Shown one piece after another: positions 4,739-20,529 of a stretch of 32,000 bases of DNA. The stretch lies in NCBI GenBank assembly GCA_050013255.1, contig JBEKFP010000001.1:65417-97416 (forward strand), in the 5' to 3' direction. A model generated the notes under the pieces. The model made no database searches, was not told the origin of the DNA, and saw nothing but the letters and a program-made list of their open reading frames with translations. How positions within the stretch are numbered: position 1 is the stretch's first letter; every line of letters begins with the position of its first letter. The DNA is from Candidatus Bathyarchaeia archaeon. Its GTDB lineage: Archaea; Thermoproteota; Bathyarchaeia; 40CM-2-53-6. Both the position numbers and the translations under genes were made by a program.

Positions 4739-5371
4739 CTATTGAGCTGCCCACGTTGGGACACAGTGGAACGGCGATTTGGCTTTGAATTCTGTTGTCG
4801 GGTTGTTACGAACGAATTCTCTACCCTTCGTCAGTGCTAGGTGATTCAATGGCATTAGGGTTTCTTTCTTGCCAGCAAGAAAGTGCTTCAGAGATTCCTT
4901 AATGCGATCGTCAGTGACCTGTGGGTGGCACAGTTCGATAAACGCGCCGAACATTACTGCATTGGCGAACATTTTCGTATCTTGCGTCTCGGTTGGAGAA
5001 TCATTCTTCAACTCATCTGCTATCTGGGTTGCCGGAATCCCGAATGCTTTGACATCATCACGGTCAATTTCGGTCCCGATCAGCGTCGTGTTGTAGAGGA
5101 CTACTCCGTCCGGGCGAAGGTAATTGAGGAAGTCCAGTGAGGGTTGATTCATTATTATCTCAATGTCGGGTTCTTCTGCTATTGGGTTGTCAACTTCATC
5201 GTCTGATATCACGACGTAGCACTTTGCCTTGCCACCCCGCGTCTCGGGGCCGTACGATGGGGTGTACGCAACATGTTTGCCTTCTAGCATGGCAGTGTAG
5301 GCTATGTAATCACTGAGCAGCAGGACGCCCTGGCCACCGTGCCCAGCTATCAGTACCTTAGTTTTTGTCAT
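4739..5371 (-). CDS. 2-oxoacid:ferredoxin oxidoreductase, gamma subunit
   Basis: 210 aa. The N-terminus IAGHGGQGVLLLSDYIA...YGPETRGG is typical of the gamma subunit. It overlaps the beta gene by 4 nt. Confidence 0.9.
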   Translation of the reverse strand: MTKTKVLIAGHGGQGVLLLSDYIAYTAMLEGKHVAYTPSYGPETRGGKAKCYVVISDDEVDNPIAEEPDIEIIMNQPSLDFLNYLRPDGVVLYNTTLIGTEIDRDDVKAFGIPATQIADELKNDSPTETQDTKMFANAVMFGAFIELCHPQVTDDRIKESLKHFLAGKKETLMPLNHLALTKGREFVRNNPTTEFKAKSPFHCVPTWAAQ

Positions 5372-6168
5372 TGCTTCTCAACTCCGAAGGTATCTTTGTA
5401 GACACCTAGCGGGAACTTCTTCGCCATGTGCTCGTACACGAAGCGTTTGGCGTCTAGGATGGGCATCTTCCAGTTAATCGAGCAGGTGCTTAGCAGTTCG
5501 ACGAAGGCGAAACCGCCCAGGGCTTGGACTTTGAACGCGTTCTCCACCGATTTCTTCGCGTCAAGCAAATTCTTGATCGTATACACCTTGCCCCTCTGGC
5601 TTGAGAGCTCTTGAACTGCCAAGCTTGCACGTTTCACGTAGGCTGCACCGTCTATTCCTGAGAGGAGTTTTGAAACATCGAGCTCAGTCCCTGTCATTGC
5701 TGCATTTCTTCCGAATGGCGTGGTAGTAGTTACCTGACCTTCGAGTGTGGTTGGGGCCATTTGGCCGCCGGTCATACCGTAGATTGCGTTGTTCACGAGG
5801 AAGACTGTGATCGGGGTGTTTCTCTTCGCTGCGTACACCAATTCCAAGAGCCCGATGGAGGCGGCGTCTCCGTCGCCCTGAACTGTGAAGACGGTAAGTT
5901 CAGGCTTAACCCTCTTCAGGCCTGCGGCAACCGCAGGAGCTCTTCCGTGAGGCGCCACGATGTGGTCGCAGTTGAAGTAATTGTAAGCCAGGACACTGCA
6001 GCCTACTGAGTCGATCATAACCGTTTTTTCACGAATTCGTAGTTCATCCATTGCGGCGGCGATCAACCGGGTGAGCGTGCCATGTTCGCATCCTGCGCAG
6101 TAGTGCGTTGGGTTATCGGTCAAAGATTCCAGTTTGCCTATCTTTACTTTGAGAGAAAGTTGACTCAT
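5368..6168 (-). CDS. 2-oxoacid:ferredoxin oxidoreductase, beta (TPP-binding) subunit
   Basis: 266 aa. It carries the CAGCEHG cysteine motif and the GDGD...N TPP/Mg motif (VQGDGDAASIGLLE...NNAIYGMTGGQ). Confidence 0.9.
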   Translation of the reverse strand: MSQLSLKVKIGKLESLTDNPTHYCAGCEHGTLTRLIAAAMDELRIREKTVMIDSVGCSVLAYNYFNCDHIVAPHGRAPAVAAGLKRVKPELTVFTVQGDGDAASIGLLELVYAAKRNTPITVFLVNNAIYGMTGGQMAPTTLEGQVTTTTPFGRNAAMTGTELDVSKLLSGIDGAAYVKRASLAVQELSSQRGKVYTIKNLLDAKKSVENAFKVQALGGFAFVELLSTCSINWKMPILDAKRFVYEHMAKKFPLGVYKDTFGVEKQ

Positions 6169-7241
6169 GCCGCTAACACCTCCAGATGTCGCAGCTTACT
6201 TTCTATTTCAGCTTCGGTCGGGACGATTCCGCCCCATTTGCCTAGAAAGTCAACAGTTACACCATCGCCGACTGCGAGCTTCACATCCTCATACATTTGA
6301 CCGGTGTTCAACTCAACATCCAAGAACTGCTTTCCTTCCGAAGCGAGTTTTCTCAGGGCGAGTTTCGGAAAAGGCCAAAGCGTAATTGGCCTGAAGAGGC
6401 CGACCTTGACACCCTTCGAACGAAGTTTGTTAATGGCGCCCTTTGCGATTCGTGACACAATACCGAAGGCAACGATCACTTTCTCAGCATCTTCAGTTAA
6501 GTAAGACTCAAACCTAACCTCGTTCGCTTCTGCCAGCTTGTATTTCTCGAAAATTCTGCCCACGTGTTTGTAGTGCTTCTGGTAGTCGAGTTCTAGCGAG
6601 TTGAGTATGTGTGGCCCGCGGCCCTTAGCCCCTGTAGCAGCCCAGGAGGACACATCGTACTTTGGTGGCGTGAACTCCGGGAACTCCACGTCCTCTTTCA
6701 ATTGGCCTGTGAAAGCATCTCCCAAAATCAGTGTTGGGTTTCTGTACTTGAACGCCAAGTCGAATCCAATTCTTGGGAAGAGGGCCATTTCTTGAACTGA
6801 GGCCGGAGCTAAAACGAATAACCGGTAATTGCCGTGCCCGCCTCCTTTGGTCGCCTGGAAGTAATCGCTCTGTTCCGGGCCAAGGTTGCCTAGGCCTGGC
6901 CCCGCTCGGCAAATATCAACCACTAGGAATGGAAGTTCCATCCCAGCCGCATATGACAACCCCTCCTGTTTCAGGCTGAAACCTGGGCTAGAGGTCGCAG
7001 TCATCGCGCGTACCCCGCCGGATGCAGCTCCAAGGACCATGTTGATGGCCTCTAGTTCGCTCGCGGCTTGCAAGAAGTATTTGTATTCTGGGTATTTTTT
7101 GTTGCCAAACTCCTTTGCTAGGGTTTCTGGGATTTCGCTTGATGGGGTTATTGGGTATGCGAAGTACGCATTGAGGCCTGCTTCGAGCGCGCCGTATGCC
7201 ACAGCCTCGTTACCCTTTAGGTAAACTCGTTGTTTCGACAT
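6165..7241 (-). CDS. 2-oxoacid:ferredoxin oxidoreductase, alpha subunit
   Basis: 358 aa. The N-terminus LKGNEAVAYGALEAGLNAYFAYPITPSSEI is typical of the alpha subunit. Confidence 0.9.
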   Translation of the reverse strand: MSKQRVYLKGNEAVAYGALEAGLNAYFAYPITPSSEIPETLAKEFGNKKYPEYKYFLQAASELEAINMVLGAASGGVRAMTATSSPGFSLKQEGLSYAAGMELPFLVVDICRAGPGLGNLGPEQSDYFQATKGGGHGNYRLFVLAPASVQEMALFPRIGFDLAFKYRNPTLILGDAFTGQLKEDVEFPEFTPPKYDVSSWAATGAKGRGPHILNSLELDYQKHYKHVGRIFEKYKLAEANEVRFESYLTEDAEKVIVAFGIVSRIAKGAINKLRSKGVKVGLFRPITLWPFPKLALRKLASEGKQFLDVELNTGQMYEDVKLAVGDGVTVDFLGKWGGIVPTEAEIESKLRHLEVLAA

Positions 7242-7493
7242 CTATGCTTTCACCAGGATCTCACTTATGGCGAAGTCTGGGCAGACCCAGTAACATATGG
7301 CGCATCCCGTGCACTCTCCCTTCGTTCCTCGATACGTGAATTCCGCTGGGTGGAAGCCAGCATGATTCAGTTTGGTGGAGAGCTTGAGGTTGCCCTGTGG
7401 GCAAACGACGACGCAGAGCTCACAGGCTTTGCACCGCTCATCCAAGATCTTAACTGAAGCCCTAGGTTGAAGGACCGTTGTAGTTTCGGTCAA
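7242..7493 (-). CDS. 2-oxoacid:ferredoxin oxidoreductase, delta subunit (2x[4Fe-4S] ferredoxin)
   Basis: 83 aa with a TTG start. It has two cluster motifs, CKACELCVVVCP and CTGCAICYWVCP. Its stop codon directly abuts the alpha-subunit ATG. Confidence 0.9.
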   Translation of the reverse strand: MTETTTVLQPRASVKILDERCKACELCVVVCPQGNLKLSTKLNHAGFHPAEFTYRGTKGECTGCAICYWVCPDFAISEILVKA

Positions 7494-7909
7494 GCCTTTA
7501 CGACCTCCTTTCTCTCAACAAAATTCTCCAATACGTAGCGCAGCATCGCGTAATGCTGCTCTTCGTCTAATGCGAGCATCGTGAGCAGGGTCTTTAGGTG
7601 CGGGTCTCTGACCTGTTCCGTTGCTGAAGTAAATAGGCGTAGGGCATTCTCTTCCATGTCCATAAGTCTCAGCAATTCTTCCCGGCTTTCATTGACGGGT
7701 GCAAGTAGTTCCCACTGGTTTGTGGCGAGGTAGTTGATTGCGCAGTTGATTACATCGGCGTGTTGCATCGTGTCCCGCATGAGTTTGGCGTAGAGAATCT
7801 TAACGACGCTATGCTTGGTTTCCCTGACCTTCTTGGCATATACTTCGGTTTCATGTTCCTCGTGGTCTAGCTGATCCCGTAGTAATGTCAAGAGCTCCTG
7901 ATTTCGCAT
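7490..7909 (-). CDS. Ferritin-like / rubrerythrin-like four-helix-bundle protein (putative)
   Basis: 139 aa and all-helical by sequence pattern. It contains acidic/His motifs LDHEEHETEVY and LDEEQHYAML (ExxH). Its TGA stop overlaps the delta-subunit TTG start in a TTGA arrangement. Confidence 0.6.
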   Translation of the reverse strand: MRNQELLTLLRDQLDHEEHETEVYAKKVRETKHSVVKILYAKLMRDTMQHADVINCAINYLATNQWELLAPVNESREELLRLMDMEENALRLFTSATEQVRDPHLKTLLTMLALDEEQHYAMLRYVLENFVERKEVVKA

Positions 7910-7993
7910 ACGCCTGTCGCAAGAAAAAGCCAGGTAATTACTCTTAGCGATTCTGTTGATATTCTATGTATTGTATCGACCCGCATGTTGGAA

Positions 7994-9214
7994 TCAGTCT
8001 GTTCTTTGGGGCCTGATTAGGAGCACAGCCGAGACCGCCCCAAACAACGCCGCCGCACTCCCGGCCATAAGCGCAAAGAAGAAACTCTTCGTAACCTCTA
8101 GGATGTAACCCGTCAAAACGGCGACGACGATTCCAGCAACATTTCCTCCAAAATTCTGAACACCCCCCATTGTCCCCGTGAAGCGTCTAGGAGTCGCCTC
8201 AACGAGCGCAACCCAGAGTGACGGGGTCGAAAAGCCGAGTGCGGCTCCTGCCAGGCTCAAGGAAATCAAAGCGAGATAGGGCCCAGGGGCGTATGCGGTA
8301 GCAAACAGCATGATTGAAGCTGCCACCATCCCGACTGCAAAGAGCTTGCTGCGAAGACCAACCGGAGAACCGCCTCTCTTCACAAGAAAATCCGAAAGCA
8401 CGCCGCCAACTAGAATCAATGTCACAACCGCGGAAATCAGCGGAAGAGTTGAGAAAAACCCTGCATTGAGAATTGTGAACTTTTGTTCTCGAACAAGATA
8501 CGTCGGCAGCCAGAGGTTCAAGTAGTAGGCCACATACCCTTGACCGAAGCTAGCTAAGGTAAGTCCCAATCCCAGGGGGCTGATTACTACTGGGAGGCTT
8601 TTGCGAATGCTAATTTTCTGTTTCGGTTCTTTTCTTGGTGCGCGGCTTAGAGGGTTGTCCTGAAAGACGAAAAGCCAGACGACACACCACAAGAGTCCAA
8701 GGAGGCCCGTAGCGAAGAATACCCATGGCCAGCCGTAACTGACGGCCAACCAAGCTGCAAACGGAAAAGCTAGCACGGGACCTAATCGGCCTCCTGCGAT
8801 CCAAATTGATGTTGCTCGCGCTCGCTCTTCCTTCTTGTACCATCCGGAGGAGGTTACTTTTGCCCCAGACACGAAATTGGGTGCCTGAGTAACACCGAGA
8901 GCTGCCCTTAGCGCGAAGAGGGCAAGGAATGAGTTTGCAAAACCTGTGAGTATGGTGATTACCGATGTGGCTAACCCACCCACAAATAGACTTCGTTTCG
9001 CGCCGAACTTGTCTGTAACAAGCCCAGCGACCGGTTGAAGCATCGTGTAGATCCACAAGAATGCGGAGAGCACCAGTCCAAGTTCGAAATCCGAGAGATG
9101 CAAATCGCGCTGAAGGAGTGGTGCGACTGGCGACAAGTTCACTCGGAGAACGAATGTTACGAATATGCCTGCACTTGTGAGAATGGCCATGGTCCAACGG
9201 TTGCGTAGTGGCAT
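7994..9214 (-). CDS. MFS transporter
   Basis: 406 aa with about 12 hydrophobic segments. The loop 2-3 motif is GLVTDKFGAKRSL. It lies 22 nt downstream of the unknown gene at 9237-10028. Confidence 0.85.
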   Translation of the reverse strand: MPLRNRWTMAILTSAGIFVTFVLRVNLSPVAPLLQRDLHLSDFELGLVLSAFLWIYTMLQPVAGLVTDKFGAKRSLFVGGLATSVITILTGFANSFLALFALRAALGVTQAPNFVSGAKVTSSGWYKKEERARATSIWIAGGRLGPVLAFPFAAWLAVSYGWPWVFFATGLLGLLWCVVWLFVFQDNPLSRAPRKEPKQKISIRKSLPVVISPLGLGLTLASFGQGYVAYYLNLWLPTYLVREQKFTILNAGFFSTLPLISAVVTLILVGGVLSDFLVKRGGSPVGLRSKLFAVGMVAASIMLFATAYAPGPYLALISLSLAGAALGFSTPSLWVALVEATPRRFTGTMGGVQNFGGNVAGIVVAVLTGYILEVTKSFFFALMAGSAAALFGAVSAVLLIRPQRTD

Positions 9215-9236
9215 TTCGTCCCCTCAAAACGCGAGT

Positions 9237-10028
9237 CTATTGCGGGACAGGAACCATGTTCGCAAGCGCCATATCCGAAAGAGTGTACTTCCTTAAGTTG
9301 GCTACCTGTGTTGGGGTCAGAACGGTACAAGCGAAACCCCAGTGGAAAGATATCCAATCCCCCACCTTAGAGCCGGCCACGAAACTGCGGCCTTGCACCT
9401 CACCGAGGACGCTTGTCTTAGTTGGAGCCCCTAAGAACAACTTGCCCTCCCGGCGCAACACGGGCTCATACTCGACGCTAAGATTTCCCCTACCATCACT
9501 TCCGAGTATTTTTCCCCAAGAGATACGGCACTTGTCCATCATTCCACCGACCACATCGTCAGGTCCGCTTGCGTTCGCAAGCGAATCCCGCACCGTACCC
9601 ATCATTGAGAACGCGTTGAAGACATGTAACGCGTGGTGGGGAAAAGCCGCGTATGGCTGCGCGTCGAAAAGTTTCTTTACTTGTTCTTTCGAGAATTTCG
9701 TCTTCAGCCTGTCCCTTAGGTGGTCATAGAATTCCCCGGGTGAAATCTTTTCGAGGAAATCGTTCCCAATCCAGTAGGCTTCGACGGCGCGGTAATCGAA
9801 TGGGTCGCTTGCTCCAACCGATTGAGCGATGAACCGAAGGTAGGGGTAGGCAGCTTGAAAGCCAGTTAAGGCTTTTATCAATTCCTGGCTTGGTTTGTTG
9901 TTCAAACACGCATCGAGCAGTACTTCGTTTTCATCTGGCCCACAGTAGCCCAAGCGGTTAGGCATGAAACTATGGCGCGCCGCTAGGATCGCTCCGTCAA
10001 TCCTTGGTGAACTCAAACTCATATCCAC
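9237..10028 (-). CDS. Uncharacterised protein with a C-terminal HypC/HupF-like domain
   Basis: 263 aa from a GTG start at 10028, with an alternative ATG at 10022. I do not recognise the N-terminal 165 aa, which include the motifs MPNRLGYCGP and AFPHHALHVF. The C-terminal CRISWGKILG...LSVEYE...VGDWISFHWGFACTVLTPTQ aligns by eye with HypC (MCLSFPGKVVAI...SVDYG...IGNYVLVQGGFAIRVLS). Confidence 0.7.
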   Translation of the reverse strand: MDMSLSSPRIDGAILAARHSFMPNRLGYCGPDENEVLLDACLNNKPSQELIKALTGFQAAYPYLRFIAQSVGASDPFDYRAVEAYWIGNDFLEKISPGEFYDHLRDRLKTKFSKEQVKKLFDAQPYAAFPHHALHVFNAFSMMGTVRDSLANASGPDDVVGGMMDKCRISWGKILGSDGRGNLSVEYEPVLRREGKLFLGAPTKTSVLGEVQGRSFVAGSKVGDWISFHWGFACTVLTPTQVANLRKYTLSDMALANMVPVPQ

Positions 10029-10031
10029 ACT

Positions 10032-10259
10032 TTAACTTCCTTGGAGTTCACGAATAACCCTCCAAGCTTCCAACGCTTCCTCCGCCTCTCTGTCGGATAG
10101 GACTCTGATTGCGAAACCACCCTGAACAAGAACGTAATTGCCTATCTGAGCTTTTACGAGCGAGAGGTTCACATTGTCTCTAATGCCGTCTGCGCCATAA
10201 TCCACCGATGCAGACCCTCCCCTAATCGCCACGACCTTGCCGGGGAAACTGAGACACAC
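10032..10259 (-). CDS. hypC: Hydrogenase maturation chaperone HypC
   Basis: I set the start at the GTG at 10259-10257 so that the product begins M-CLSFPGKVVAI, because the family requires an N-terminal Cys after Met removal. This gives 75 aa, the typical HypC size. The track ORF carries a 40-aa upstream extension with no family resemblance. Confidence 0.85.
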   Translation of the reverse strand: MCLSFPGKVVAIRGGSASVDYGADGIRDNVNLSLVKAQIGNYVLVQGGFAIRVLSDREAEEALEAWRVIRELQGS

Positions 10260-10402
10260 GGCGGCACACCCATATCGATACTCGTTTTCCAATGCTATAT
10301 GTTTGTGATGCCGTTCCCAAGAGTGGGATAGAGATTTGATAAGGAAACCAGCAACCACCTTCATAACCCAAGGAACCACAGCCCGATTTAGGTGCGTTCC
10401 AC

Positions 10403-11086
10403 TTGACTAGGCCTCCAGAAGTCATAACCTCTGCGGAGGGCGAGGTATTCGACGTGGAACTTGAGATTGACATCCTAAGAGAGAACCAACGCCTCGCCGA
10501 CGAGAACAAGAAAAAGCTAGATGCAAACAAGATCCACGCAATTGATGTCATGGGTTCGGTGGGGTCAGGAAAAACCTCCCTCATCAAGGCTATCGTTTCT
10601 AGACTGAAGAACAAACACCGGATCGCAGTAATTGAGGGAGACGTAACTACAACGATTGATTCTGAGCTCATCGCCTCTGAGGGAATCCCGACCGTTCAGG
10701 TCAACACAGGCAAAGAATGCCACCTGGATGCGAACCTCATCAGGAAGGCCTTGGACCGAATGCCATTGGACCGGCTTGACCTGATCTTCATTGAGAATGT
10801 AGGAAACCTGATTTGCCCAGCCGAGTTTCCGCTTGGGTCCGATAGACGATTGGTCGTGATCAGCGTGACGGAGGGCCCCTACATGGTTCTCAAGCACCCG
10901 ATGATGTTTCTCGGCGCCAAGGTTGTGGCCATAAACAAAGTAGACTTGGCCAAGGCGATGGATGTTGAACCCGAGAAGCTAAGCGCCGATGTTGCCAAAC
11001 TGAACCCAAAGGCGGTTACTGTTCCCACAAGTTGCAAGAACGGAAAAGGCATCGAAGAAGTCATCAAAGCACTCGGGTTGAGTTAG
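10403..11086 (+). CDS. hypB: Hydrogenase nickel-incorporation GTPase HypB
   Basis: 227 aa with a TTG start. The P-loop is MGSVGSGKTSL. It also has the ENVGNLICPA motif and the NKVDL (NKxD) motif. Confidence 0.9.
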   Translation: MTRPPEVITSAEGEVFDVELEIDILRENQRLADENKKKLDANKIHAIDVMGSVGSGKTSLIKAIVSRLKNKHRIAVIEGDVTTTIDSELIASEGIPTVQVNTGKECHLDANLIRKALDRMPLDRLDLIFIENVGNLICPAEFPLGSDRRLVVISVTEGPYMVLKHPMMFLGAKVVAINKVDLAKAMDVEPEKLSADVAKLNPKAVTVPTSCKNGKGIEEVIKALGLS

Positions 11087-11097
11087 TGGTTTAGAGT

Positions 11098-11514
11098 ATG
11101 CATGAGTTCTCTTTTGCCACATCAATTGTAGAGTCGCTTCTCGACCTCGCAAATAAGCAGGGGGCGAGTAAGGTGTTGGGGGTTCACATGAGAATTGGAA
11201 AACTCAGAGCTCTATCGACCGAGCAGTTGAGCTTCTCGTATGGCATACTTGCCAAGGGCACCATTCTCGAAGGCTCCAAGTTGACGGTAGAGGAATCGGC
11301 CGGAAGCCTAAGGTGTACTCACTGCGAGTATCACGGAGAATTCGACCCCGAAGGTGATTTGTCCTTTCACTTTGGAATACCGCCCCTCATCTGCCCGCAA
11401 TGCGGTAGCGGTCTGAGTATCGAAGGCGGTGATGAATGCACGATAACAAGCGTTCGGATGCTTCTACCGACAACCATGAAAGAAAGTGAGCCCGCAGCCG
11501 AGACCTCGAATTGA
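11098..11514 (+). CDS. hypA: Hydrogenase nickel-insertion protein HypA
   Basis: 138 aa. It has the N-terminal MHE nickel-site motif and the zinc site CTHC...CPQC. Confidence 0.9.
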   Translation: MHEFSFATSIVESLLDLANKQGASKVLGVHMRIGKLRALSTEQLSFSYGILAKGTILEGSKLTVEESAGSLRCTHCEYHGEFDPEGDLSFHFGIPPLICPQCGSGLSIEGGDECTITSVRMLLPTTMKESEPAAETSN

Positions 11515-11563
11515 GGAAGCTGGCAGCCACGCGACGCCTATTCTCTATATAGAAAAGCGGCGG

Positions 11564-11572
11564 AATATATAA
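11564..11572 (+). promoter_or_regulatory. Candidate TATA box for the AbrB-PhoU paralog 2 gene
   Basis: The sequence GGAATATATAACTGG lies about 55 nt upstream of the ATG at 11623. A second TATA-like element, TCTATATAGA, is at 11544-11553. Confidence 0.25.
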
Positions 11573-11622
11573 CTGGCCTCTCCAGCTGACAGTAGTTTCG
11601 ATTTCCGCACCACATCAGAGTA

Positions 11623-12738
11623 ATGACCAGAGTGAAAGCAGAATTGGAGATAAGAAAGGTCCAGAGAGTCGGGCATTCGACCTTAACGGTCTCCCTTCCC
11701 AGAGATTGGGTTAGGCAAGTTGGACTAAAGCAGGGGGGCGTAGTCACCCTTCGCCTTTCCGAATTCGGCGAACTCATTGTTACCCCCGGCAGCGAGATGG
11801 AATCTGAAGAGATGACGGTCTGCAAAATAAACGCTGATGCCTGCAGGGACCGAGACTTTCTTTCAAGAATGATTACGGGCAACTACATCCTGGGCCGCGA
11901 CACTATCATAGTGTCATCAACCACAGAACTAAAGGCGGAACAATTGGCTGAAATCCGGGACTCAACACGAAGGTTGAGCGGTCTAGGTATCGTTGAGCAA
12001 ACACCAAAGGAGACCGTGATTCAATGCTTTCTTGACCCTTCCAAATTCACGGTCACCGGCCTACTCACACGCCTACACAAAGTAGCTGTCTCAATGCTCG
12101 AGACGGCCATGCAGGCCTTGAAGGACAGAAAGTTTTCCCTAGCCCTAGAAGTGTTAGAACTTGAGAACGAAGCCGACCGCCTATACTGGCTGATCCTGCG
12201 GCAAATATTCAGGGCGATTTCGAAGATACCGCTCTCGCGACATGTCGGAATAGAATCAGCAACCCACGCTGTAGGCTATCGGGCTGTGTCAAAGTACCTC
12301 GAAGAGATGGCTGACTGTAGTGAATCGATCGCCAACCTAGTTCTCTCCATGGCCGATGAGAACTGCCTTGAATACTCCTCAGTAATAGACGAAGTGTGCA
12401 AGTTTGGAGCTGAAACCATCGCTATATCGAAAAGTGGAATGGATTCACTTAGCATGCTGGATGTCGAAATGGCAAACGCAATCGTGGCCCGCTCAAAACA
12501 CGCTGAAGAAATGGAAAAAGAGGTCATAGAACTCGTTGTGTCATCGGTTCAAGAACCCAAGCTAGCATTGGCACTAAGGGGCATCGTATGGAACCTCGCG
12601 GAAGTATCCCGCTCCGCTCAAATGGTCGCTGAGATCGCAATCAACCGCTACCTTGAAAGCAATAGCGACATGTGTCAATTCTGGAAAGAGCGGAAGAGCG
12701 GGGGAGACGTTCAATACCTAAGGAAGGTCGTAGCCTAG
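11623..12738 (+). CDS. AbrB/SpoVT-domain plus PhoU-domain regulator, paralog 2
   Basis: 371 aa. RKVQRVGHSTLTVSLPRDWV is nearly identical to the N-terminus of paralog 1. The helical repeats are colinear with paralog 1 (ENEADRLYWLILRQIF versus EEESDRIYWLIVRQLL). Confidence 0.85.
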   Translation: MTRVKAELEIRKVQRVGHSTLTVSLPRDWVRQVGLKQGGVVTLRLSEFGELIVTPGSEMESEEMTVCKINADACRDRDFLSRMITGNYILGRDTIIVSSTTELKAEQLAEIRDSTRRLSGLGIVEQTPKETVIQCFLDPSKFTVTGLLTRLHKVAVSMLETAMQALKDRKFSLALEVLELENEADRLYWLILRQIFRAISKIPLSRHVGIESATHAVGYRAVSKYLEEMADCSESIANLVLSMADENCLEYSSVIDEVCKFGAETIAISKSGMDSLSMLDVEMANAIVARSKHAEEMEKEVIELVVSSVQEPKLALALRGIVWNLAEVSRSAQMVAEIAINRYLESNSDMCQFWKERKSGGDVQYLRKVVA

Positions 12739-19809: not shown

Positions 19810-20529
19810 ATGCACTCCCTCGATCATCATAGAATAAAGACACGTCAAGTTACGTTGGCCGCGTCCTTCGCCGCAGTCTACTTCGTGCTTCGAACCATTC
19901 CCACTTTTCAAATGGTCGGCATATCCGGCCGATTCAGTGCAGCCGATTTCCTGCTGACCACGATTGCCATGCTGTGCGGCTTATGGGGCGGCGTACTTTC
20001 CGTAGTGATTGGGACGATCTTGGCTTATGGCTTGAGGCCCCCTATTTTCTTCGGCCTCGATTTCCTACCCGCTATCGCGAACGTAGCTATAGCTGCCCTT
20101 CTGCTCAAAGGCCGCTATAGAACAGCGCGGGGCATTTATGTCGCAATCTTTTTCGCGTTTGTACTCAGCCCGTACAGTCTGTTGTTTGAATATGGGTATG
20201 TGCCTTACACGTGGCTTCATATTGTTGCACTAATCGTTCTCCTATCACCAATAGCGGTCAAGGTTCCTGCTTGGTTGAGCGGCTATGGTTACCGGCAGAT
20301 TGTCGCCATAGGCACGTTGGCCTTTGTGGGAACAATGGGACAACACCTTGTAGGAGGACTTCTTTACGAATTAGCCGTCGGAGTGGTTGGGGGAGTTAGC
20401 CCATCAAATTTGGCTCTTACTTGGCGTATCATTTTCTTGGCTTACCCAATCGAACGACTCCTCACCGTGATCCTTTCAACGATCATGGCGCTTGCCGTGC
20501 AGCGTTCCATCAAGAAATGGATGCCCTAG
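19810..20529 (+). CDS. Integral membrane protein (possibly ECF-transporter S-component-like)
   Basis: 239 aa with 6-7 hydrophobic helices. The N-terminus TRQVTLAASFAAVYFVLR resembles S-component starts. It lies 7 nt after the oxidoreductase gene. The product assignment is tentative. Confidence 0.6.
   Translation: MHSLDHHRIKTRQVTLAASFAAVYFVLRTIPTFQMVGISGRFSAADFLLTTIAMLCGLWGGVLSVVIGTILAYGLRPPIFFGLDFLPAIANVAIAALLLKGRYRTARGIYVAIFFAFVLSPYSLLFEYGYVPYTWLHIVALIVLLSPIAVKVPAWLSGYGYRQIVAIGTLAFVGTMGQHLVGGLLYELAVGVVGGVSPSNLALTWRIIFLAYPIERLLTVILSTIMALAVQRSIKKWMP

Follow-up and report, generated by a model that had tools for sequence, protein, structure and literature searches.

What does a HypC-like domain do at the end of a larger protein whose gene stands directly beside a gene for HypC, a chaperone of [NiFe]-hydrogenase maturation? 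This question is raised by a locus in a 32,000-nucleotide (nt) stretch of DNA, herein referred to as the window, from Candidatus Bathyarchaeia archaeon (assembly GCA_050013255.1, contig JBEKFP010000001.1, positions 65,417 to 97,416 of the forward strand). The gene in question lies between hypC and a gene for a major facilitator superfamily (MFS) transporter and encodes a protein of 263 amino acids (aa) that belongs to the Pfam family DUF6390. Its C-terminal domain is a genuine HypC homologue, and we tentatively propose a metal-binding or metal-sensing role for the whole protein. The gene, its two domains, and the residues discussed below are as follows.

9237..10028, minus strand: DUF6390 gene, the subject of this study (open reading frame (ORF) listing; Pfam PF19927; 263 aa from GTG at 10028)
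9531..10028, minus strand: N-terminal all-helical domain, aa 1-166 (AlphaFold2 secondary structure)
9237..9530, minus strand: C-terminal HypC-like OB domain, aa 167-263 (hhalign, PDB profile matches, Foldseek, conservation)
Codon 9944-9942, minus strand: C29, motif LGYCGP, near-invariant
Codon 9635-9633, minus strand: H132, motif FPHHALHVF, invariant
Codon 9530-9528, minus strand: C167, aligned with HypC Cys2
Codon 9344-9342, minus strand: H229, aligned with HypC His51

A HypC-like domain in the DUF6390 family

The C-terminal ~100 aa of the protein have an OB fold (oligonucleotide/oligosaccharide-binding) descended from HypC. As a single sequence, the protein matches the Pfam family HupF_HypC (PF01455) only below threshold (aa 217-244, E = 0.15, 12.7 bits against a cut-off of 28.5), whereas a profile-profile comparison by hhalign of aa 163-263 (106 sequences) with a HypC alignment gave a probability of 95.7% and E = 8.6e-9 over 62 columns. 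The HypC of T. kodakarensis provided the top two PDB sequence matches of a 26-sequence family profile (3vyr/2z1c, E = 0.011). In the AlphaFold2 model of the window protein (predicted local distance difference test (pLDDT) score 82.8, predicted template-modelling score (pTM) 0.83), a β-barrel with strands in residues 170-237 is followed by a C-terminal helix (239-258), and pLDDT is 90-96 in this part. The Foldseek search of PDB returned OB folds only, namely ribosomal S17 and HypC (2z1c_B), with the latter having the best target-normalised template-modelling (TM) score (0.59), the best identity (20%), and a probability of 1.00. A preliminary description of the gene had aligned the last 97 aa with the neighbouring HypC by eye, and hhalign reproduced the aligned blocks (C-RISWGKILG with C-LSFPGKVVA, LSVEYE with ASVDYG, and VGDWISFHWGFACTVLT with IGNYVLVQGGFAIRVLS). 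The insertion in the middle of the aligned region had been put at roughly 25 aa; in the hhalign alignment it is ~18 aa.

Both residues of the HypC iron site have counterparts in this domain. In HypC, C2 is essential and needed as a free N-terminal cysteine, and H51 (E. coli numbering) is conserved and a possible Fe ligand (PMC12134894). Cys167 of the window protein is placed by hhalign on HypC Cys2, as had been suspected, and H229 (SFHWGFA) aligns with the histidine of TkHypC (VIVHTGFA), a V-H-x-G-F-type histidine that is also present in EcHypC. Cys167 is internal in all members of the family, and in the model it is preceded by a helix (157-167).

The protein had at first been regarded as unclassified. 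In fact, it is a full-length DUF6390 member, matching positions 4-239 of the 244-position profile PF19927 with 188.5 bits against a cut-off of 25 (E = 1.8e-55), and the precomputed Pfam assignment of its homologues is also DUF6390. No NCBIfam model matches the window protein, and no Pfam match was found beyond DUF6390 and the sub-threshold HupF_HypC. In total, the family includes 268 close homologues and 1299 clusters at 50% identity (E <= 0.001); its members are nearly all 230-270 aa long and have both domains. Apparent relatives with only the N-terminal or only the C-terminal domain (P0122, P0147) were rejected, since they look like truncated or frameshifted gene calls. The existing annotations of DUF6390 proteins are inconsistent ("hydrogenase maturation factor" in some pipelines, "hypothetical" in others), and in the searched library neither DUF6390 nor PF19927 is mentioned in any paper, nor was anything relevant found on HypC-like proteins. 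DUF6390 is an already catalogued yet unstudied family that is clearly HypC-derived; it is not a canonical HypC, because it falls below the profile threshold, its cysteine is not N-terminal, and it consists of two domains.

For the N-terminal domain, which the preliminary description could not relate to anything, no Pfam or NCBIfam match and no credible PDB sequence match were found, and the domain modelled alone (pLDDT 71) had no Foldseek match in PDB (best E = 3, TM < 0.25). The Cys/His motifs that had looked conserved in it contain C29 and H132. Among 133 diverse representatives with no more than 50% mutual identity, H132 and C167 are found in 100% (the latter in 133/133), C29 in 99%, and H229 in 98%. 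Further conserved positions are W230 (98%), H135 (85%), and the aromatic residues Y63, Y85, and W86; C234 (69%) and D165 (77%) are partly conserved. None of the positions with 85% or higher conservation in these representatives is Asp, Glu, Lys, or Arg. C29, H132, C167, and H229 are also kept in all the fusion and actinobacterial forms examined. Conservation of Cys and His without acidic or basic residues fits binding rather than acid-base catalysis. The residue pattern suggests a Cys/His binding site common to both domains and not a conventional catalytic center.

The neighbouring HypC, genomic context, and fusions

The neighbours of the DUF6390 gene that enter the argument are the following.

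10032..10259, minus strand: hypC paralogue, herein referred to as His-less HypC (75 aa, GTG start at 10259; Pfam HupF_HypC, E = 1.7e-18; TIGR00074 above cut-off)
7994..9214, minus strand: MFS transporter gene (Pfam MFS_1, E = 1.9e-55), 22 nt downstream of the DUF6390 gene and in the same apparent operon
10403..11086, plus strand: hypB, nickel-insertion nucleoside triphosphatase (Pfam cobW/HypB/UreG, E = 1.6e-23), divergent from hypC
11098..11514, plus strand: hypA, nickel metallochaperone (Pfam HypA, E = 5.2e-25)

The DUF6390 ORF is a real, expressed-looking gene. The spacing is as first described: 3 nt separate the hypC stop (10032) from the DUF6390 start, and 22 nt separate the DUF6390 end from the MFS start (9214). 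No terminator-like site was found between hypC and the MFS gene, and co-transcription of the DUF6390 gene with hypC is very probable. An alternative ATG at 10022, two codons in, would give a protein of 261 aa, the length of the closest orthologue (L001). A 173-aa ORF on the opposite strand (9208-9729, plus) was rejected as a gene, being a shadow of the conserved DUF6390 gene. The hypC ORF as listed (115 aa, 10032-10379, minus) extends too far upstream; as read from the sequence, the true start codon is a GTG at 10259 with TGT CTC AGT TTC CCC after it, and the product begins MCLSFPGK. An AT-rich, TATA-like stretch, ACATATAGCA, is located ~40 nt upstream of this GTG, inside the 143-nt divergent region that hypC has in common with hypB.

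The HypC encoded here keeps Cys2 and has Gln in place of the conserved histidine (VLVQGGFA). The same was found across phyla: the H51 equivalent is absent from 56 of the 58 HypC proteins encoded next to DUF6390 genes, being replaced by Q (22), F (15), N (5), S (5), Y (5), A (3), or E (1). The histidine is present in all four solved HypC proteins (4/4), and the histidine missing from the adjacent HypC is kept in the DUF6390 C-terminal domain. The DUF6390-adjacent HypC proteins look like a distinct His-less subfamily, and the pattern suggests, but does not prove, that His-less HypC and DUF6390 act as a pair.

The genomic context was analyzed in 80 species-level genome loci, 55 of them non-actinobacterial and 25 from Actinomycetota or Dormibacteria. 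Neighbours were typed with gene picking guided by the GC content of third codon positions (for Actinomycetota) and with seed-based phmmer and hidden Markov model searches; these replaced single-linkage clustering of raw ORFs, which in high-GC genomes was misled by antisense and over-extended ORFs. The preliminary description had asked whether homologues always sit beside hyp genes. They do so in 52 of the 55 non-actinobacterial loci, where a same-strand hypC is found within 1.5 kb, and in none of the other 25. The 55 loci span Bathyarchaeia, Nitrososphaerota, Dehalococcoidia, other Chloroflexota, Patescibacteria, Armatimonadota, and others. In many of them hypA/hypB are directly downstream or divergent, and hydrogenase genes often lie close by. 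Linkage extends to hypA/hypB and not to hypD, hypE, or hypF: diagnostic motifs of the latter three occurred once in 94 loci, and the hypD motifs were absent from 93 of the 94.

Several gene orders were found. In Bathyarchaeia, hypA and hypB are divergent from the series hypC, DUF6390, MFS, rubrerythrin-like gene, and 2-oxoacid:ferredoxin oxidoreductase (OFOR) genes; hypB is conserved in 12 of 14 loci and the MFS gene is adjacent in 11 of 14. The closest loci, also from Bathyarchaeia, have 82% identity and unchanged synteny. In Nitrososphaerota, the order is OFOR, MFS, hypC, DUF6390, convergent with a group-4/complex-I-like membrane hydrogenase. In Dehalococcoidia, genes for the hydrogenase small subunit, large subunit, and HycI are followed by hypA, hypC, EamA, and DUF6390. 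In Patescibacteria, the hydrogenase operon that contains DUF6390 also encodes Fer4, NAD-binding, small-subunit, and large-subunit proteins and from its gene content looks like group 3b; several bacteria have the order hypC-DUF6390-hypA-hypB. In Acidimicrobiia (L057, L078, L023, L043; positions ~6200-11800), DUF6390 has a conserved position between a divergent FtsH-like AAA protease gene and convergent genes for an L,D-transpeptidase and MurJ; it stands alone there, with no hyp, hydrogenase, or transporter partner in these four loci.

Some loci are aberrant. In one Bathyarchaeota metagenome-assembled genome (L013, 7893-8785 and 8808-10025), the DUF6390 and MFS genes are each split into two ORFs, either by pseudogenisation or by frameshift errors of long reads. 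Two loci in metagenome-assembled genomes with bacterial labels, Acidiferrales (L003) and Methylomirabilota (L012), are of the Bathyarchaeia type, with 66-70% identity and the same hypC-DUF6390-MFS or rubrerythrin-like synteny; these are probably mis-binned archaeal contigs.

A transporter gene on the same strand within 300 nt of DUF6390 was found in 34 of the 55 hyp-linked loci versus 1 of the 25 actinobacterial and Dormibacteria loci. The 34 transporters include 14 MFS proteins, 12 EamA proteins, 6 NikA-like binding proteins, and 2 Opp/Nik-type permeases. The EamA gene sits between hypC and DUF6390 in some Dehalococcoidia and Patescibacteria loci, and a whole Nik/Opp-type ATP-binding cassette (ABC) system does so in two loci (L068/L072). 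One protein is an EamA-DUF6390 fusion, whose gene adjoins Nramp and hydrogenase genes. The best model for the ABC binding proteins is nickel_nikA, far below its cut-off, with Opp, Gsi, and CntA close behind. The MFS proteins resemble organic-anion symporters (the NCBIfam models closest to the window protein are those of organic-anion symporter subfamilies, none of which it matches above cut-off; TIGR00893, 228 bits), and the EamA model is named "carboxylate/amino acid/amine transporter."

Fusions to DNA-binding domains were surveyed in the 150 best family representatives. N- or C-terminal helix-turn-helix (HTH) domains of the XRE (twice), PadR, GntR, ArsR-like, and MarR types were found (P0130, P0136, P0142, P0143, P0169, P0259). 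The gene for GntR-DUF6390 is followed by an ABC importer, and the gene for PadR-DUF6390 by a 394-aa gene and then a NikA-like ABC system (L085). A hypC-XRE-DUF6390 arrangement is located between two NikA-like ABC systems, a hypC-DUF6390-MarR locus was found, and ArsR-DUF6390-MFS adjoins NicO, [NiFe]-hydrogenase, HycI, and HypA genes. DUF6390 has been joined to five HTH families independently, as is typical of effector-binding input domains, a sensor-type use. The window protein has no HTH domain, DUF6390 being its sole family match in Pfam. The 394-aa gene (L085, 2466-3650, plus) has no Pfam or NCBIfam match and is conserved in three contigs.

Downstream of the MFS gene, the window contains a further block on the same strand.

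7490-7909, minus strand: rubrerythrin-like gene (Pfam Rubrerythrin)
7242-7493, minus strand: ferredoxin-like delta subunit (cysteine motifs only)
6165-7241, minus strand: OFOR alpha (homology to L028/L001 genes carrying POR_N and TPP_enzyme_C)
5368-6168, minus strand: OFOR beta (homology to the same L028/L001 genes carrying POR_N and TPP_enzyme_C)
4739-5371, minus strand: OFOR gamma (same-strand downstream block 4739..7909; Pfam POR found in the block)

Of the Bathyarchaeia loci, 12 of 14 have OFOR alpha in the vicinity of DUF6390, as do 9 of 15 loci of Nitrososphaerota, with a different gene order (cluster at 3855-6342 in L028). The genes in 4739..7909 are probably conserved context and not part of the DUF6390 module itself. 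The region is flanked by two paralogous regulators (1738-2802, minus, and 11623-12738, plus, the second directly after hypA), both of which combine an AbrB/MazE-type N-terminal domain with a PhoU domain. Elsewhere in the window, a 239-aa ORF (19810-20529, plus) downstream of a luciferase-like monooxygenase gene matches no Pfam family at E <= 0.001.

Proposed function and alternative explanations

We tentatively propose, with somewhat less than even confidence, that DUF6390 is a HypC-derived Cys/His module for metal binding or sensing, with nickel as the favoured metal, that works with the His-less HypC and a transporter in supplying [NiFe]-hydrogenase maturation. C29, H132, C167, and H229 would form a putative interdomain metal site for nickel or, alternatively, iron. 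In the bathyarchaeial operon (hypC*-DUF6390-MFS, with hypC* being the His-less gene, divergent from hypB-hypA), DUF6390 and the His-less HypC may receive, buffer, or sense the metal at the transporter and may then feed or gate the HypA/HypB/HypC maturation route. The HTH-fused relatives would be one-component regulators of Nik-like and other uptake operons, in which the same module would sense the effector. Nickel is favoured because of the linkage to hypA/hypB and not hypD/E/F, the NikA-like and NicO neighbours, and the precedent of CooT (see Comparison with known systems). Iron stays a possible ligand, since HypC is an iron chaperone.

Several observations weigh against this proposal. HypC carries iron and is not a nickel chaperone, and in the AlphaFold2 model the loops bearing C29 and H132 have low pLDDT. 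None of the NikA-like calls reaches its curated cut-off, and the substrate could equally well be a peptide, an opine, or glutathione. Neither organic-anion-type MFS transporters nor EamA transporters are known to carry nickel ions, and the MFS gene of the two archaeal lineages may just belong functionally to the neighbouring OFOR. Finally, hyp and hydrogenase genes are absent from all 25 loci of Actinomycetota and Dormibacteria, so DUF6390 is not universally tied to hydrogenases. The proteins of these loci are 47-49% identical to the hyp-linked bacterial ones and cluster with them; given this identity, the co-clustering, and the retention of the key residues, their dismissal as a distant paralogous subfamily was rejected.

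The preliminary description had suggested an accessory factor of hydrogenase cofactor assembly, namely a HypC/HupF-type scaffold for Fe(CN)2CO tethered to a new catalytic or ligand-delivery domain, acting in the iron branch and possibly in anaerobic formation of the CO ligand. From the strong linkage to hyp and [NiFe]-hydrogenase genes (hypC in 52 of the 55 non-actinobacterial loci, and some copies inside hydrogenase operons), an accessory role in hydrogenase biogenesis can fairly be inferred. The scaffold itself we consider unlikely. The C-terminal domain does retain both HypC iron-site residues, the gene is paired with hypC, and a conserved OFOR is located beside the module in two archaeal lineages, where a link to CO2 release would be speculation. 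However, the cysteine is internal behind a helix, hence the free N-terminal cysteine of HypC chemistry is absent; the iron-branch partners hypD, hypE, and hypF are essentially never near; and no conserved acidic, basic, or nucleotide-binding residues suggestive of catalysis were found. The lack of hyp linkage in Actinomycetota is also against it, and the fusions to HTH domains and a transporter are difficult to square with a dedicated scaffold; they point instead to a protein that binds and senses a ligand or metal, and not to catalysis or ligand delivery. For the CO-ligand idea, which is pure speculation, this analysis provides no specific support.

A second explanation is that DUF6390 binds or converts the organic compound carried by the adjacent transporter, which could be a peptide, a carboxylate similar to an amino acid, or a chelator of the metallophore type; the link to hydrogenases would then be only indirect. 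Three unrelated transporter families interchange beside the gene; their best models name carboxylates, amino acids, or amines (EamA) and organic anions (MFS), and the binding proteins are also like Opp, Gsi, and CntA. HTH fusions typically sense a transported metabolite, and the actinobacterial copies have no hyp context. Such a role is nevertheless improbable, because the C-terminal domain is specifically HypC-like with its metal-site residues kept, hypC is adjacent in nearly all non-actinobacterial loci with some copies within hydrogenase operons, and the invariant residues are Cys and His, not the Arg or Lys typical of carboxylate binding.

A third explanation shares the Cys/His site with our proposal and assigns it to another cofactor. 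According to it, DUF6390 would carry an Fe-S cluster or haem with which it senses redox state, O2, or a gas, and would regulate hydrogenase expression or maturation, with no metal-ion traffic. The two invariant Cys and two invariant His residues, the partly conserved third cysteine (C234), the conserved aromatics that could line a cofactor pocket (Y63, Y85, W86, W171, W230), the repeated fusions to DNA-binding domains, and the rubrerythrin-like gene in the window operon are consistent with such a sensor. Yet PDB profile and Foldseek searches returned no similarity to a known Fe-S or haem sensor fold, and neither the tight coupling to transporters, including the physical EamA fusion, nor the dedicated HypC partner is explained, so that we doubt this reading as well.

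Least probable by far is a pro-HypC, from which (auto)proteolysis at Lys166|Cys167 would free a HypC-type chaperone with an N-terminal cysteine: C167 is 100% conserved at the exact position of HypC Cys2, after a conserved D-x motif (D165), and canonical HypC requires a free N-terminal cysteine (PMC12134894), but the N-terminal domain is equally conserved (C29, H132, and an AYWxGN motif), which marks it as a working domain and not a pro-peptide, and the apparent domain-only proteins look truncated or frameshifted.

The proposed metal-binding or metal-sensing module can be extended to a broader statement, of which we are more doubtful. DUF6390 and its dedicated His-less HypC might constitute a widespread, unrecognised metal-handling system for [NiFe] hydrogenases, in which transporters of the MFS, EamA, or Nik type are the docking sites of a HypC-derived Cys2His2 module that hands nickel (or iron) on to HypA/HypB/HypC, and the HTH-fused forms might be a new class of metal-sensing transcription factors. 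If true, this system would span uncultured archaea, Chloroflexota, Patescibacteria, and others. Several questions on [NiFe]-hydrogenase biogenesis were listed as open in a 2025 review (PMC12134894). The route of nickel or iron to the Hyp machinery and the extra factors of non-model anaerobes are a poorly resolved part of this process. The hosts are environmentally important and include Bathyarchaeia, Nitrososphaerota that are not of the ammonia-oxidiser type and have group-4-like hydrogenases, Dehalococcoidia, and Patescibacteria. The invariant Cys and His residues, the His-less HypC partner, and the transporter and HTH fusions provide testable hypotheses on the metal, the partner, and metal-dependent DNA binding. 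Recognition of the DUF6390 family would also correct the annotation of its members.

Comparison with known systems

The closest known relatives are the Fe(CN)2CO-carrying chaperones HypC, HybG, and HupF (PF01455, TIGR00074). DUF6390 resembles them in its C-terminal ~100 aa, with an OB barrel and a C-terminal helix, in the equivalents of Cys2 and His51, and in its location in hyp clusters. It differs in having the cysteine at position 167, an insertion of ~18 aa, an additional 166-aa domain, and a below-threshold profile score (12.7 vs 28.5 bits), in being unlinked to hypD/E/F, and in its possible fusion to HTH domains or a transporter.

HupF/HoxL offer a parallel: these HypC paralogues with an extension, which act with HupK/HoxV in the maturation of O2-tolerant hydrogenases, likewise derive from HypC, have additional sequence, and occur together with another HypC-type protein (PMC12134894). 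HupF, however, retains the N-terminal cysteine and has a short C-terminal extension, whereas the extra part of DUF6390 is a large N-terminal domain. Genes like HupK/HoxV were not observed near DUF6390, whose hosts are mostly anaerobes or uncultured lineages.

With HypD, the parallel is conceptual only. HypD contributes Cys41 to the iron site together with C2 of HypC (PMC12134894), and by analogy C29 and H132 of the DUF6390 N-terminal domain could join the HypC-like Cys and His in forming a site. In contrast to HypD, the N-terminal domain is all-helical and has no HypD Fe-S motifs, and the DUF6390 profile had no similarity to any HypD chain in PDB even at E <= 10.

A precedent for nickel is CooT, a small β-barrel protein of carbon monoxide dehydrogenase (CODH) maturation, in which Cys2 binds Ni(II) with nanomolar affinity (PMC6006190). 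Thus, a barrel of HypC size that has such a cysteine can be a nickel protein. With 7 kDa, CooT consists of a single domain, its cysteine is N-terminal while that of DUF6390 is internal, and it is encoded in CODH operons and not in hyp operons; the CooT profile was not among the Pfam matches of the window protein at E <= 1.

NikR, RcnR/InrS, and NmtR are nickel-responsive one-component regulators. The sensor fold of DUF6390 is entirely different from theirs, and the window protein has no DNA-binding domain. The likeness lies in the HTH-fused DUF6390 proteins, which have a Cys/His-rich effector domain and are encoded beside NikA-like ABC uptake operons and hypC.

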